Part shown: positions 32,258 to 44,838 of the stretch, in pieces
How the letters are laid out: every line of letters begins with the position of its first letter
Numbering within the stretch: the first letter of the stretch is position 1
Translations under genes and position numbers: made by a program
Notes under the pieces: model-generated
The model's input: the letters and a program-made list of their open reading frames with translations, nothing else
Databases searched by the model: none
Told to the model about the DNA's origin: nothing
Source of the DNA: Leptonemataceae bacterium
GTDB taxonomy: Bacteria > Spirochaetota > Leptospiria > Leptospirales > Leptonemataceae
NCBI GenBank assembly: GCA_965227295.1
Contig: OZ245742.1
Location: 2,432,001 to 2,496,000 of the forward strand
Direction of reading: 5' to 3'
DNA: 64,000 nt

Positions 32258-34390
32258 CTAATCCTTTTTCTCACCGAAGGTGAAGTTATCGAGGTTGCTC
32301 CGAATTTGCGCGCAGGTCGGTTCATTGGTGCCCGGGATGTTGCGTCCGATGATCGGCCCTTCGGGGGTGCCGGTCTGTGTGGGGGAAGATCCTTCCGTAA
32401 GGCCGAATTTCGTACGCAGTCCCCGCAGGACACCACGGAGTTCCGAAGTGGTACGTAGATCGTAGCTGGAGGTCGCCCACGGCCCCGGCGCCTGGAACGA
32501 AAGGACCTCGCCGCGTTCTTTGCGCCCGGCTTCTCCATGGGGAACCCGGAACCCGAGGAGTTCAAAAAAACCGCGCTTGCCGACATTCAGATTGTTTGCG
32601 GCCTGGGTCATGGCCGAGGTCAGGTCCTTGACACTTTCGCCGCCGCGGCCGCCTACGCCGTCAGTCAGTACGATTAATGCGTGATTCTGACGCTCACGAG
32701 TATCGCCCTCGGCCGTGGTATTCGCTTCCTTGATGGAATCAAGAATCGCGCTCTTCAGGGGAGTGCCTTCGGTGGCCTCGGCATCCAGGCATTCCAGAAG
32801 CCGGGCTGCCAGGCGGGCCCGGGTCAATTCACCGATGTTGGTCACGGACGTATCCGTGTTGAAGCCGGTATCGAAACTAATGAGTCCGCCGGAACTGCCT
32901 TGAAAGAAGGCCTTGAAGACAACTCGAATATCCACGCCGGGCGCGAACCTGCGCGGAAGAAGTTCTTCGCGTACGGCCGCCGCGGCGCGCTGATACAATC
33001 GGTTCTCGATCTGCGCGGCATCGGTGCCCGTAGGAATGCGATTCGCCTGGCTCTCGGATTCTTCGCCGGTCTTGACGTCGCGAAACATGCTGCCGCTCAT
33101 ATCGACGAGAACCGTGATTTGATCGATTTGCGTTCGTTCTTCTTTCGGGAACGTGATGGTTTTGATATCGACGCCGGGCACACTATCCGCGCCGCCGGTA
33201 TGTTTGATCACAATGTAATTTGCGCCGCCGGCCCGTGTACTCTCGCCGCCTCGAATGGGTTGCTTCGATGTCGCTTCCGTAATGTTTGCGATGGGGAATG
33301 TGTCGGCCGATGCCGGAGTGTTTCCGGGGGTGACGCCTCGCGCGGCCAGGACGTGATACGTTTCCGACGGATCCTCATCCTGCAAGATAAAGCTCGTGAC
33401 CTGGTTGCCGGTTTGTGCCGGTGGATCGAGCCATATTTCGATCATTCCGAACGAACCGGTCGAGTCGTAGTTGGATGCGTCGGCGAATCGGGACGGCGTG
33501 ATCGTCTCCGTGACGAATTTGCCGCCTTTTTTGTAAGTCCTCTGGGCCCTTACGATTTGCGGTTGTCTGGCGCCCGGGCCGGTCGACACCGCCGGGATCC
33601 GGATGATGCCGGCAGAGGCCGCCGCCGAGGTGCCGTACACCTTGCCCTGCGCATCGAAGGCCTGCACCACGATGCGATCCGTCGGTGCGACGGTGACGTT
33701 CTCGACGCGGCCGCCGGCACCGATTGCATGCGCCGCTTCTGATCCGTCACGGTATTGGTCGTCCTGCTTGAGCACGCGCAGGTTTCCGCGTGCGGCCGGA
33801 GTTCCGCCGATGTGAACCGTGTAACTCTTCGTTTGCAGAGCTGTAGTGCCGCCCGGTTCTTCCTGGCGTTGGATCAACGGCATGCGTGCGACGGTGCTGC
33901 TTTGTTGTATCGTGTGCGCAAGCTCGTGGGCCATCAGGTGTCTGCCGCGGTTTGAGCTCGCATCGTACTGGCCGGCGCCGAAGTAAATGTTGCGGCCGAT
34001 CGTAAACGCGCGTGCGCCGATCCCTTCCGCCGCGCGATGGGCGGCGGCGCCGTCGCGGATGCGCACGTTACTGAAATCGTAGCCCATCCGCGATTCGAAG
34101 AAGTCGCGCTCGTTTCGTTCGAGAGAACGCGAACCGGCCTGGTCGGCCGCGTGGATGTGTGCCTCGGCGTCGGGGCTGATCGGGGAACCACCGGCGCCGG
34201 GTTGTTCCGTGCGCATCAAACGTTTCGATGACTCTCCGTTGACGGCGCGTTCTGCCGCGCGGTCTGCTTCCTGTTCGGTTGCATCACTGGCTTCACTTAC
34301 GCGTAACTTAGCGCGAACGAACTTCGGCGGGCTGGAGTTGCTCGCGGATGCCTTCGGTGCGGTTTGCGGGGCGGCGGTTTTTTGCGACAT
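32258..34390 (-). CDS. DUF4157 (eCIS core domain) protein with C-terminal vWA domain
   Basis: [15 protein letters not shown]...[17 protein letters not shown]...[17 protein letters not shown]-like VDMSGSM, GTPL, IVLTDG. Confidence 0.9.
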
Positions 34391-34413
34391 GTGTTACTCG
34401 ACTCGCGGAGATT

Positions 34414-42133: not shown

Positions 42134-42378
42134 ACCGTGGAATCCTCAATACTTGAAAAATCTTACGATCGAAACGGAGAACAATCGACGTTACGTCGCG
42201 CAGAACGGCCGGTCAATCGTGCGGCGCCGTGGATCGCAAAGATCGAGGAGAATCGTAAAGGATTCTGTAGATATTACAGGGGGCCTGCGTAAGTGTTTAG
42301 GACTTTGAAGTATGCCGCGTTCGCTCGCGGAGACTTCGGCCGCCAGACCCGGCCTTCGAGCGCCGGAGCGGAGCGTCC

Positions 42379-44838
42379 TTAGAGAACGTCGACGTCCGGT
42401 CGCACTTTGCGAAACGCGCGGATTTCCGCGCCGGAAAACGATCCGTGGGCGCGCACGAGATAGAGGTACGGAAGATCCACGAGAGAAAGCAGGCCCGTTA
42501 ACCCAGGGTTACTGAAGATTACCAGCTCTTCCAGGTTCGAGCAGTTCGCCAGCGCCGACACGTCTTTGGCCTGGTTTTCCTGCAGGAACAACTGTCGGAT
42601 CTCCGTCAGTTTTCCGAGCGGTGCGATGTCTTCGATTTCATTGCCGATCAACTCCAGGCGTCTTAGACCGGTGAACCTGGCCAGGGGGGAAACGTCGCCA
42701 ATGCCGTTCCGGGAGAGATCCAGTTGTCGTAGCGTCGGCAGGTCGGGAAGGCCGGAGAGGTCGGCAAGCCGGCATTCATCGAGACCGAGGTAGGCGATTA
42801 CCGGAAGATCGCCCAACGGCTCCAGGTTTTTCAGGGGATTCCGGTGCAGGTTCAATGAGCGCAGGCAGCGCAGAGTGGAAAGATCGGGCAACTCCGCGAT
42901 GCCGTTTTCCGAAACGGAGACGTAGTCCAGACGTTCCAGGCGCGTAAGCGGGGTGATGTCGCTGAGTTCTTTCTGACCGAGAGATAGATGGTTTTCTTTG
43001 CGCAATTCGAAAAAACCTTCCGCCCCGGGGATATTTCCGTCTTCGTCTTCTTCGGTGAGTTCGTCCACCTCATCCGCCAGTGCCTCGCGCCAGACTTCGG
43101 GCAGGCTCTCCCACCAGGCGCGCCAGTGTTTGACTTCGTCCCCGGTCAGCGCGACCGTAAACGGACGGCTCTCCTGCCAGAGCTGCACGCCCTCCGGGGT
43201 GACGGCTTCGTCTCGCCAGTGGGCGTCCAGGTCCTGCAATAACGGAAGCGAACGCAGTTCGAGCGCGGCGCGAATGCTCGTTTTTTCCAGGGGATTACCG
43301 AAGCAGGATATTTCTTTCAACAAACGATTGTTTTTCAGGCAATTCAGGTCCGTGAGTTCGTTGTTGTAGAGTGAAAGCTCGACGAGTGCCGGGAGATCGG
43401 ACAGGGGTTCTACCGACTGGAGCTTGTTTCCGTTCAGGCGAAGTTTGCGTAGATTTTTCAGGCCGGCCAGGGCGGAGACATCCGTCAGGCCGCAGTCGCC
43501 GAGGTCCAGTTTCTCCAGCCGAACCAGGTCTCTCAGAGGCGAAAGATCGTTGATGGGATTCCCGTCCAGCTTGAGTTCCACCAGTCGCTTTAGTTCGGCC
43601 AGAGGGCCGAGGTCTTCGAGCATGTTCCCTTCGAGGGATAACTCGCGCAGGCGCGTAAACCGGGTGAGAAACGAAACGTCCTCCACGTCCAGATGATCCA
43701 GCTTGAGTTCCGTCGCTCGAATGAGAGCGGCCAGGTCTTCCGGCTGCATTGCGTCCGGTTCTCTGTCGAAAACTTCGCCGAGTTTTTTGCGAACCTGTTC
43801 GTTGCCGATAGAAGCCCACCACGTTGTGAGATCTTTTTGCGTCGCTTCGTCCGGTACCAGGACCGGTGGTTCCAGCCAGGCGATGATTTCTTCCGCGCGT
43901 TCCCGGGCTCCGGCGCCTTCGATTTTGCGCAGTTCTTCGAGGGCTTCCGTGACACGCTTCGGTTCCTTCGCGCCGAAACGCGTGACGATGAATCCGAAGA
44001 ACTTCGTCGCCTGGACCATTTCGTCCAGATGGAGATATGCAAGGCCGCGGTACAGAAACGAATAAAACGAGGAGTAATCATCAAAGAGCATGTACATCGA
44101 GCGGGCTTTCGCTTCGGCGTACTCGGCCGCGACCTTCCACTCTTTGCGACTCAGGTAGATTGAGATTATATTCAGGGCGGCGGACTTTGTGCCTTCCTCG
44201 ACGGCCATTTCGAAGAGCGACATGGCCCGGTCTGGGTCGCCGAGATTCTTGTAACACAGCGCGAGTATGTTGCGCAGGTTCCCCGGCAGTCCCCGGTATG
44301 AGTCCAGGATGTCGGCCCGAAATGAACCGGAAGCAGCGAGGCTTTGTTCCACCAGGTCCCGGGCCTCCATGTACTTTTCTTCTTCGAAAAGTGCGAGAGC
44401 TTTCTCCCGGATCTCACTGAGTAGTTCCGCCTGTGTCTTTCCTCCGGGCGGCAACAGAGAGTTCAGAAACTCTTCGAGGGAGTCTGAGTGAGGTTCAAAA
44501 CCGCTTTCGTAGTCGAAGAACAGGACGGGAACGCGGTCCTGGCTCAGGTCGGCGGCCAGGTAGAAACTTCCATCCAATTCCAGAAGGTCGGCCAGAGGCC
44601 ACAGAGTGCTCTTCGATTCCGTGAATGATCCGGCATATTCTTGTTTATCGTCCAGGTCCTCGCGATTCGCGAACGTAATCGGACTGCGCACGTCGCTTCC
44701 GAAATAGGGGAGGTTCGTCACCTGAAAGCCCTCGTACTTTTTCCATTCACTGGAACGAAAGAACTCTCGGAGCCGTTCCGGGAATACTACGCCGGATTCT
44801 TCCTCCAGCGCGGCGGGGTCTATGGGCGTGTGGCTCAT
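42379..44838 (-). CDS. SMI1/KNR4 (SUKH)-like + TPR + leucine-rich repeat protein
   Basis: N-terminal ALEEESGVVFPERLREFF...PVLFFDYE...DSLEEFL; TPR NILALCYKNLGDPDRAMSLFEMAV; two blocks of internalin-like LxxLxLxxN repeats. Confidence 0.85.
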   Translation of the reverse strand: MSHTPIDPAALEEESGVVFPERLREFFRSSEWKKYEGFQVTNLPYFGSDVRSPITFANREDLDDKQEYAGSFTESKSTLWPLADLLELDGSFYLAADLSQDRVPVLFFDYESGFEPHSDSLEEFLNSLLPPGGKTQAELLSEIREKALALFEEEKYMEARDLVEQSLAASGSFRADILDSYRGLPGNLRNILALCYKNLGDPDRAMSLFEMAVEEGTKSAALNIISIYLSRKEWKVAAEYAEAKARSMYMLFDDYSSFYSFLYRGLAYLHLDEMVQATKFFGFIVTRFGAKEPKRVTEALEELRKIEGAGARERAEEIIAWLEPPVLVPDEATQKDLTTWWASIGNEQVRKKLGEVFDREPDAMQPEDLAALIRATELKLDHLDVEDVSFLTRFTRLRELSLEGNMLEDLGPLAELKRLVELKLDGNPINDLSPLRDLVRLEKLDLGDCGLTDVSALAGLKNLRKLRLNGNKLQSVEPLSDLPALVELSLYNNELTDLNCLKNNRLLKEISCFGNPLEKTSIRAALELRSLPLLQDLDAHWRDEAVTPEGVQLWQESRPFTVALTGDEVKHWRAWWESLPEVWREALADEVDELTEEDEDGNIPGAEGFFELRKENHLSLGQKELSDITPLTRLERLDYVSVSENGIAELPDLSTLRCLRSLNLHRNPLKNLEPLGDLPVIAYLGLDECRLADLSGLPDLPTLRQLDLSRNGIGDVSPLARFTGLRRLELIGNEIEDIAPLGKLTEIRQLFLQENQAKDVSALANCSNLEELVIFSNPGLTGLLSLVDLPYLYLVRAHGSFSGAEIRAFRKVRPDVDVL

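Follow-up and report, generated by a model that had tools for sequence, protein, structure and literature searches.

Introduction

The closest described relatives of the proteins considered here are the PVC-metallopeptidase toxins of Zhang, de Souza, Anantharaman, Iyer and Aravind (2012, PMC3482391), which are the same group as the DUF4157 toxins associated with extracellular contractile injection systems (eCIS) in Geller et al. (2021, excerpts of PMC8213781). The family is defined by the pattern HExxHxxQ-E, with the glutamate on a third helix, and both the scheme of a constant peptidase joined to a variable toxin and the idea of self-processing are already published (PMC3482391). The AlgoCIS proteins Cgo1 and Cgo2 consist of an N-terminal domain (NTD) that is disordered, DUF4157 and a variable C-terminal domain (CTD), and fill the tube lumen as judged by cryo-electron tomography and mass spectrometry (excerpts of PMC8894135). 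The NTD is required for their loading, DUF4157 is dispensable, and a Pvc15-type ATPase mediates the process (excerpts of bioRxiv 10.64898/2026.05.27.728243). Here we describe an array of five DUF4157 genes, four intact and one decayed, in a stretch of 64,000 nucleotides (bases 2,432,001-2,496,000 of contig OZ245742.1, assembly GCA_965227295.1; hereafter the window). The region of the array is best read as a variable genomic island between the flagellar genes flaG and flaB that stores eCIS-type polymorphic cargo toxins of the PVC-metallopeptidase (DUF4157) kind, a reading to which we give a probability of roughly 0.68.

The genome comprises 5.94 Mb in a single contig, at 59.8% GC. The gene that we read as fliA (30012-30809) shows 98% identity to two genomes and 76-78% to Leptospira species, and the host, judged by sequence, is a high-GC member of the Leptospirales, a lineage described as a free-living relative of Leptospira. 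A first-pass annotation of the window had correctly named a spirochaete, the fliA relatives belonging to Leptospirales, Leptonemataceae and Leptospiraceae. Its narrower mention of Leptospiraceae holds only roughly, the closest relatives carrying any one of these three names.

A DUF4157 array with a shared front half

All five co-oriented copies match PF13699 (eCIS_core, formerly DUF4157; Pfam cut-off 22 bits), the four intact genes at 97.5-111.3 bits and the remnant of the fifth at 44.5 bits in a genome-wide scan, as the first reading of four intact genes and one decayed gene had proposed. Along the minus strand from 45036 to 32258 the order of transcription is a gene of tetratricopeptide (TPR) and leucine-rich (LRR) repeats, D01, an insertion element, the wreck of the fifth copy, D07, D09 and D08. 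The intact copies are as follows.

40172-42133, minus strand: D01, 653 aa; PF13699 E 2.6e-32; junction KIRRK; 354-aa orphan tip
N-terminal region of D01, minus strand: 211 aa, long and acidic, with ExEAD and two CxxC pairs
35369-36517, minus strand: D07, 382 aa; PF13699 E 1.5e-28; basic, putatively disordered N-tail, putatively permuted metallopeptidase, linker and colicin-M-like tip
34414-35163, minus strand: D09, 249 aa; PF13699 E 5.2e-28; tip of ~75 aa
32258-34390, minus strand: D08, 710 aa; PF13699 E 3.5e-28; tip of ~540 aa with beta-rich and VWA-like parts

The motifs reported from the initial inspection were all recovered. Three copies, those nearest the 3' end, have the leader P(P/L)KFV(R/Q)AKLR(V/L), and each of the four intact ones has ExEAD. 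AHELxHxxQ occurs in all five, or in four on a stricter count that puts the Gln of D09 (AHELAHTMQN) one residue later, and a junction motif follows in each case (IQRQ, IHRQ, VQRQ, VRRQ and IRRK). Past the junction the four intact proteins do not align. The array thus has the constant N-terminal part and unrelated tips of polymorphic toxins, with cores 51-68% identical and tips unalignable. D07, D08 and D09 are local paralogues (cores 65-68% and N-terminal regions 41-50% identical), and D01 is a more distant copy (51-56%) whose long N-terminal region resembles those of the remote copies D03, D04 and D02. DNA identity over the shared parts is only ~70-83%, with no long identical DNA, and the duplications are therefore old. 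The array appears to have grown by local duplication of the front half, giving three copies, and the tips to have been replaced by recombination just past the peptidase domain.

No hydrophobic signal was found in any of the four intact proteins, none of which has a 19-residue window with a Kyte-Doolittle value of 1.6 or more, and the net charge of their first 28 residues is +3 to +8. The AlphaFold2 model of D07 has a mean predicted local distance difference test (pLDDT) score of 84.6. The basic residues 1-28 are of low confidence (block pLDDT 51-68), as are residues 184-201 (pLDDT <50), and the domains between these segments are confident. Each intact protein is read as a short, basic and probably disordered N-tail, a zinc metallopeptidase of ~150 residues, a disordered linker and a different C-terminal effector.

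Several details of the array were noted separately. The CxxC pairs of D01 lie at Cys 133, 136, 178 and 181 (residues 133-181, window 41590-41737). Its acidic N-terminal region also contains repeated MMSRVQRE-like units, and a similar RKCAAC stretch occurs in the DUF4157 protein of the injection system locus termed E3 below. A 20-nt repeat (90% identical) is present at 35309-35328 and 36675-36694, ~150 nt upstream of the starts of D09 and D07, and may be a shared regulatory element.

Effector tips

The clearest assignment was obtained for the tip of D07, both by profile and by fold.

35453-35905, minus strand: colicin-M-like domain of D07, residues 205-355

A phmmer search of PDB sequences weakly matched the tip, in collinear order, to the colicin M catalytic domain (E 0.13). 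An exhaustive phmmer search recovered 62 relatives of the tip, all of which a word-indexed protein search had missed. The tip was aligned with 61 of these (one protein of 1,966 aa was left out), and among the resulting 62 rows were 23 with Pfam Colicin_M, 16 with eCIS_core, 2 each with WXG100 and DUF637, and 1 each with RHS and PPE; this variety of toxin contexts indicates a shuffled toxin module. The family profile matched 11 PDB sequences at E<=0.01, all of them ColM-type bacteriocins, including colicin M (E 1.5e-11), pectocins M1 and M2, PaeM and syringacin M. Comparison of the D07 model by Foldseek gave 12 matches at E<=1e-3, again all ColM-type bacteriocins, and VIA-align superposed it on pectocin M1 (8jc1_A; Z 8.3, rmsd 4.2, 136 aligned), which identifies a ColM fold. 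D07 keeps D311, Y313 and R323, the Asp and the Arg being invariant in 62/62 rows. The signature DxYDx5HR, as implied in excerpts of PMC5821083, reads D-Y-Y-N-F-D-x6-N-R in D07, and its His is not conserved in this branch. In a midpoint-rooted FastTree of ColM-like domains, labelled by a crude regular expression, D07 sits on a long branch at a distance from most of the members fused to DUF4157. The tip is probably antibacterial.

Foldseek and profile searches on each tip had been suggested as a check on the first reading, and D07 is the case in which they succeeded by both profile and fold; the other tips have no close relatives. The D08 tip gives a VWA match in Pfam at E 0.027, under the cut-off, and a score of 0.78 in the ESM Atlas that is a weak lead only. 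A metagenome scan with a two-sequence alignment of it found nothing. It recurs in G001, a genome of the same genus, at 32-34% identity, directly after VIRRQ and behind a different, longer DUF4157 front. No relative of the D01 tip was found in PDB sequences, the ESM Atlas, the word-indexed protein search, 42 genomes of the family or a metagenome scan. Its GC content is 46.3% against 62% in the front half of the same gene, and this sharp break at the junction suggests tip swapping. The D09 tip has 8 Cys in its last 55 residues, and the profile scan assigned it to no family. Elsewhere in the genome a remote DUF4157 protein (C1 4977441-4980083) carries a Het-C domain as its tip (E 2.6e-19).

Proposed position of the zinc-ligand glutamate

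Two segments of D07 flank the conserved core.

36368-36412, minus strand: ExEAD helix, residues 36-50 (E38, D42); AlphaFold2 block pLDDT 84 (31-40) and 91 (41-50); proposed third zinc-ligand helix
35978-35995, minus strand: junction FVQRQP, residues 175-180; AlphaFold2 beta-strand, block pLDDT 79

The ExEAD segment had been taken for a leader. This probably needs revising: it matches a conserved glutamate helix that lies ~30 residues after HExxH in other members of the family, and more probably belongs to the enzyme than serves as an export leader. The HExxHxxQ motif of D07 is located on the active-site helix of the model (146-168), and no helix is present between HExxH and the linker, so that the conserved glutamate expected after HExxH is missing from its place. 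Across the four intact proteins of the window, ExEAD instead lies 110-204 residues upstream of the core motif. We read the missing downstream helix as a permuted form and not as lost membership of the family.

The best structural match of the D07 core is the effector domain of VgrG2b (6h56_B; VIA-align Z 6.6, rmsd 3.5, 98 aligned), a thermolysin-like gluzincin with two His and one Glu as ligands, the third ligand being Glu983 on a later helix of the crystal structure (excerpts of PMC6899460). The alignment (model 66-176, chain 844-950) ends just after the HExxH helix. D11, a paralogue of the same genome with the motif after the core, was modelled at pLDDT 79.6 with the motif on a confident helix (152-162). 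Its VIA-align match to VgrG2b (Z 9.2, rmsd 4.0, 129 aligned; model 32-170, chain 835-1013) spans the whole domain, the Glu983 region included. The next-best structures for D11 were minigluzincins, Spartan and M1 aminopeptidases, and about the first twenty rows, which were checked, were zinc peptidases. Both models therefore have a zincin/gluzincin fold by comparison with 6h56_B. This relation was found by VIA-align only: Foldseek with the D11 model gave no match at E<=0.001, DUF4157 against PDB sequences gave two irrelevant rows at E ~0.6, and the corresponding profile search gave 0 matches.

Among 63 relatives of D09 an ExEAD-like motif occurs 19-39 residues after HExxH in 21 and 94-183 residues before it in 12. 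Aligning the former type shows that its first Glu never varies, and neither do the H, E and H. With a relaxed motif, 27 of 87 DUF4157 proteins have it solely before HExxH and 37 solely after it, 2 have it in both places and 21 in neither, against a background of 4/421 and 4/112 control windows (odds ratio 0.04, Fisher p 2e-7; the sequences are related and the p value overstates the significance). D01 and D03 count among the last group because their motif falls beyond the 190-residue scan window.

On this evidence we lean slightly towards reading ExEAD as the glutamate helix that binds zinc in a circularly permuted PVC-metallopeptidase, lying ahead of the core and not behind it. With somewhat better than even odds, the DUF4157 family would then exist in two permuted topologies, the glutamate helix lying either ~30 residues after HExxH or ~95-270 before it, and both would be represented in this genome. 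To about the same degree we favour the junction motif as the strand that ends the permuted fold, which likely arose when DUF4157 was duplicated in tandem and the product lost sequence from both ends. The h-Q-x-K/Q strand, found at the start of the leader and again at the junction, would then form a structural border of the fold. If this is true, a third of the enzyme is left out of the Pfam model, and mutational tests of DUF4157 function should include the upstream Glu. A confirmed permutation would also bear on the function of DUF4157, a question of long standing. The literature passages searched contain no account of such a rearrangement in DUF4157 or PVC-metallopeptidase proteins.

Injection systems in the genome

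The absence of sheath, tube and baseplate genes from the window, as first reported, was confirmed, all such matches in the genome lying elsewhere. A genome-wide search for these genes and for AAA ATPases, which the first-pass annotation had proposed, identified three complete eCIS-type loci.

1.572-1.594 Mb: E1, with winged-helix (WHD) and AAA ATPase, sheath, two gp19 tubes, CIS_tube, spike, PAAR, gp25, Baseplate_J and collar-type fibres; no DUF4157 gene
2.794-2.818 Mb: E2, with the E1 set minus PAAR and collar-type fibres; weak DUF2345 at the place of the spike; Pvc16_N and three DUF4157 genes
5.706-5.727 Mb: E3, with Pvc16_N; includes a 246-aa DUF4157 protein without a tip

The AAA+ ATPase, sheath, tube, spike, gp25 and Baseplate_J are common to the three, Pvc16_N was found in E2 and E3, and PAAR in E1. 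The sheaths share only 32-41% identity and the loci are therefore three distinct systems. Type VI secretion system (T6SS) components TssC and TssF were not found in the genome. In E3 the Baseplate_J protein (1,316 aa, C1 5708682-5712632) also has WD40/beta-propeller matches, an uncommon finding in a wedge protein of the baseplate.

Across the family, PF13699 is present in 8 of 42 genomes and the gp19-type tube in 9, the 8 being a subset of the 9; the tube thus occurs in 8/8 genomes with DUF4157 and in 1/34 without, the ninth genome having a single weaker match. The 8 genomes fall in 6 genera, and these relatives are not independent. They contain 3 to 17 DUF4157 matches each, outnumbering the machines, and a distance of >100 kb separates 11 of the 17 matches of this genome, and 8 of the 9 of G001, from any tube gene. 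Service in trans would therefore be the usual arrangement for this lineage. With three complete eCIS present and none closer than ~320 kb, the orphan depot served in trans that had been proposed for the array appears the best reading on this analysis.

Pairing the array with one eCIS by N-terminal similarity was attempted and failed, only ExEAD being shared with the eCIS-encoded copies. The four Pvc15-like ATPases of the genome are 35-47% mutually identical and reveal no pairing. One of them is an orphan: at C1 4783075-4789018 a 1,254-aa DUF4157 gene is directly followed by a Pvc15-like WHD+AAA ATPase (721 aa), both remote from all sheath and tube genes, and the two may be a pair of cargo and loader.

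The flaG-flaB site

The array is flanked by flaG and by flaB-type flagellin genes, in agreement with its earlier placement between flagellar genes.

31715-32137, plus strand: flaG; PF03646 E 3.2e-12; left border of the island
45443-46288, plus strand: first of two flagellin (flaB-type) genes, named from its translation; right border of the island

The flank names fliA, flhF, flhG and flaB are presumed from our own reading of the translations. Both flaG and the flagellin gene are present in 5 of the 34 related loci inspected, at a spacing of 1.3-4.7 kb. In G002, a genome of the same genus, the interval holds two small genes and the island is absent, and in G001 it contains an insert of ~9 kb whose single DUF4157 gene is a different one (519 aa, E 1.8e-32), accompanied by genes for an Aspzincin_M35 protein, a GNAT protein and a GH2 enzyme. 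Because its contents differ among three genomes of one genus, the site is a variable spot; it carries DUF4157 cargo in 2 of the 3, and the five-copy array is specific to the genome described here. Directly after the single DUF4157 gene of the G001 site a 119-aa open reading frame (ORF; G001 locus 2881-3240, minus strand) with a signal-peptide-like start is a candidate immunity gene. Outside the island, between fliA and flaG, the window encodes a 174-aa protein of tandem peptide repeats (31078-31602, plus strand), with DVSVLRT three times and SELKADHESLR about four times, which gave only weak Pfam matches of coiled-coil type.

The decayed copy and other genes of the array

The fifth copy and the insertion sequence (IS) beside it occupy the space between D01 and the middle of the array.

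~39009-40170, minus strand: IS481-family element; transposase ORF 39061-40131; NF033577 E 1.8e-83
38760-39008, minus strand: remnant of the fifth copy; second half of the core and junction VRRQ; 5' part lost at the IS edge
38278-38715, minus strand: frameshifted former tip of the decayed copy; 145-aa ORF with a second HELVH zincin-like domain

Five further copies of the element at 94% identity, six in all, are present in the genome and fix its ends. The frame of the remnant opens at the IS edge, reads ASLGKDVFFGAGKYQPGTSAGRRFLAHELVHIQQ, carries AHELVHIQQ and then VRRQ, and shifts into the ORF at 38278-38715. Its PF13699 match in the genome-wide scan covers profile positions 36-76 (E 8.9e-11, at 38843-38962). 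The stop codon of D01 directly adjoins the IS, so the 5' part of the copy is missing and not merely displaced. The former tip has no Pfam match and aligns to the DUF4157 profile by hhalign with a probability of 40.8% (E 2.8e-4); a second peptidase domain as the tip is an arrangement already noted in 2012 (PMC3482391). Another decayed copy is a short piece of DUF4157 at C1 1012282-1012449, which contains an in-frame TAG and follows closely on a Lon-protease-like gene.

The remaining features of the island are the following.

42379-44838, minus strand: head gene, 819 aa from the Met at 44838 (ORF open to 45036); SUKH-like N-terminus, TPR and two LRR blocks
36731-38275, plus strand: amidohydrolase-family gene; Amidohydro_1 E 1.8e-13; on the opposite strand, splitting the array
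32152-32174, minus strand: terminator-like hairpin just past the last gene of the array; 8-pair stem with 5 GC pairs and a T-run; pattern match only

The head gene, first described as a SUKH-domain gene, consists mainly of TPR and LRR (LRR_4 E 2.3e-37), its internalin-like LRR matches being far under their cut-offs. For SUKH, the SMI1_KNR4 match spans positions 5-124 of a 125-position profile, but at 23.0 bits (E 1.3e-4) it falls below the cut-off of 25.4 bits. The amidohydrolase was considered as an immunity or accessory gene, and evidence was found neither for nor against this. No NCBIfam model matches any DUF4157 protein.

Discussion

For expression, loading, choice of eCIS, target and self-processing we infer the following course. 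Having no Sec signal, the proteins would be made in the cytoplasm, where the N-terminal tail would be recognised by a Pvc15-like AAA+ ATPase and the protein then passed into the lumen of the tube in one of the three eCIS. Contraction would expel the cargo into a target cell, in which the tip would act, that of D07 presumably by colicin-M-like cleavage of the peptidoglycan precursor lipid II. A ColM-like tip argues for bacterial targets and thus for an antibacterial use of the eCIS. The peptidase may release or mature the tip, and the disordered linker past the junction would be a more accessible place for a cut than the modelled strand. One copy was later destroyed by the IS481 insertion.

Several observations weigh against an island of eCIS cargo. 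The nearest eCIS starts ~320 kb from the array, outside the range of ten genes from the operon within which 88% of known eCIS toxins are encoded (excerpts of PMC11297309). DUF4157 also occurs in T6SS effectors (excerpts of PMC6899460) and beside ripC in mycobacteria (excerpts of PMC12067865), and the domain alone is therefore no proof of eCIS delivery. The N-tails of the array are unlike those of the eCIS-encoded DUF4157 proteins, with which only the ExEAD segment matches. Only one of the four tips is a recognisable toxin, and in it N314 replaces the second Asp of the signature (Asp in 52/62 rows, Asn in 9/62), because of which the activity of the modelled D07 tip is likely and not certain. 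No immunity gene was found beside any copy, the gaps of 23 and 205 nt containing no credible ORF; a missing adjacent immunity gene is common for PVC-type toxins (PMC3482391).

The same array might instead be a silent or decaying store of spare cassettes, a recombination stock for the eCIS-adjacent DUF4157 genes whose own products are not loaded. One of the five copies has indeed been destroyed by an IS and a frameshift, G002 lacks the island at this site and G001 has a different one there, and tips move between fronts. Orphan cassettes are usually 5'-truncated tips, and the four intact copies here are complete, with their own start codons, N-tails and peptidase domains, and are closed by a terminator-like site. 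Their fronts are 65-68% identical to one another and 31-58% to the other full-length copies of the genome, which together with the absence of long identical DNA leaves little substrate for homologous exchange, and we regard a mere store as unlikely. Less likely still are metallopeptidase toxins or enzymes that act independently of eCIS, either alone, as bacteriocins released by lysis, or through some other exporter. Toxins of the colicin M type are classically released and act from outside (excerpts of PMC5821083), the DUF4157-type domain of VgrG2b is itself an antibacterial toxin (excerpts of PMC6899460), and DUF4157 genes do occur outside eCIS contexts (excerpts of PMC12067865). D07, however, lacks colicin-type domains for receptor binding or translocation, its front being a DUF4157 module; no signal peptide, TssC or TssF was found; and DUF4157 coincides with the tube gene in 8/8 genomes against 1/34, even if these relatives are not independent.

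The first-pass annotation had suggested that the HExxH domain cuts at the junction motif (I/V-x-R-Q/K) and so releases the tip. The motif stands 10-16 residues past HExxHxxQ in 5/5 copies, VIRRQ precedes the homologous tip in G001, the relatives are enriched in it (11/63 against 18/350 control windows), and autoproteolytic release is a published prediction for the family (PMC3482391). We nevertheless consider a cut at this place doubtful. FVQRQP is modelled as a beta-strand (pLDDT ~79) and the flexible, accessible segment 184-201 only comes after it; the motif is absent from 52/63 relatives and from 12/12 DUF4157-ColM fusions examined; and h-Q-x-K/Q also opens the N-terminal leader, which makes it look like a structural element at the edges of the module. 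The toxicity of AlgoCIS Cgo1 is independent of its metalloprotease motifs (excerpts of PMC8894135), and the parts of the literature available hold no demonstrated cleavage for any member of the family.

What is new here is modest and consists of the host lineage, the remote array at a flagellar site, the ColM-like tip on this scaffold and the likely permuted topology. Spirochaetes are absent from the phyletic list of the domain in excerpts of PMC3482391, and the main texts that were checked do not contain the string 'spirochaet'. A literature search on contractile injection systems and Leptospira found nothing relevant. The array would extend eCIS weaponry to a free-living lineage of the Leptospirales and add a colicin-M-like domain directed at a cell-wall precursor to the DUF4157-linked repertoire. 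Since most DUF4157 cargo genes of this lineage lie far from the eCIS operons, toxin surveys centred on the operons would miss most of the arsenal.

Comparison with known systems

Like the PVC-metallopeptidase toxins, the proteins of the array have a constant N-terminal HExxHxxQ peptidase and highly variable C-terminal toxins, with several paralogues in one genome, often no adjacent immunity gene and, in the decayed copy, a second peptidase domain as the tip. They differ in that the array is ~320 kb from an eCIS operon, at a flagellar site and in a host of the Leptospirales, and in the proposed glutamate helix, which is N-terminal of the core and not after it. The predicted three-part build is shared with AlgoCIS Cgo1 and Cgo2, as is the existence of paralogous cargos with a common NTD and different CTDs, a likeness of architecture. 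Cgo1 and Cgo2 are encoded inside their cluster, whereas the genes of the array are remote.

The D07 tip has the fold of the catalytic domain of the colicin M family (colicin M, PaeM, syringacin M and pectocins M1 and M2; excerpts of PMC5821083), with a collinear motif region, and ColM domains have been described before as modules of polymorphic toxins. Unlike colicin M, D07 has no receptor-binding or translocation domain, DUF4157 taking the place of the delivery module, and no Cmi- or PmiA-like immunity gene was seen near it. For the DUF4157 core the best structural likeness is to the C-terminal domain of VgrG2b of Pseudomonas aeruginosa (6h56; excerpts of PMC6899460). There the domain is itself the T6SS toxin and its glutamate (E983) comes after HExxH, whereas in the proteins of the array no helix follows HExxH and the Glu motif is upstream.

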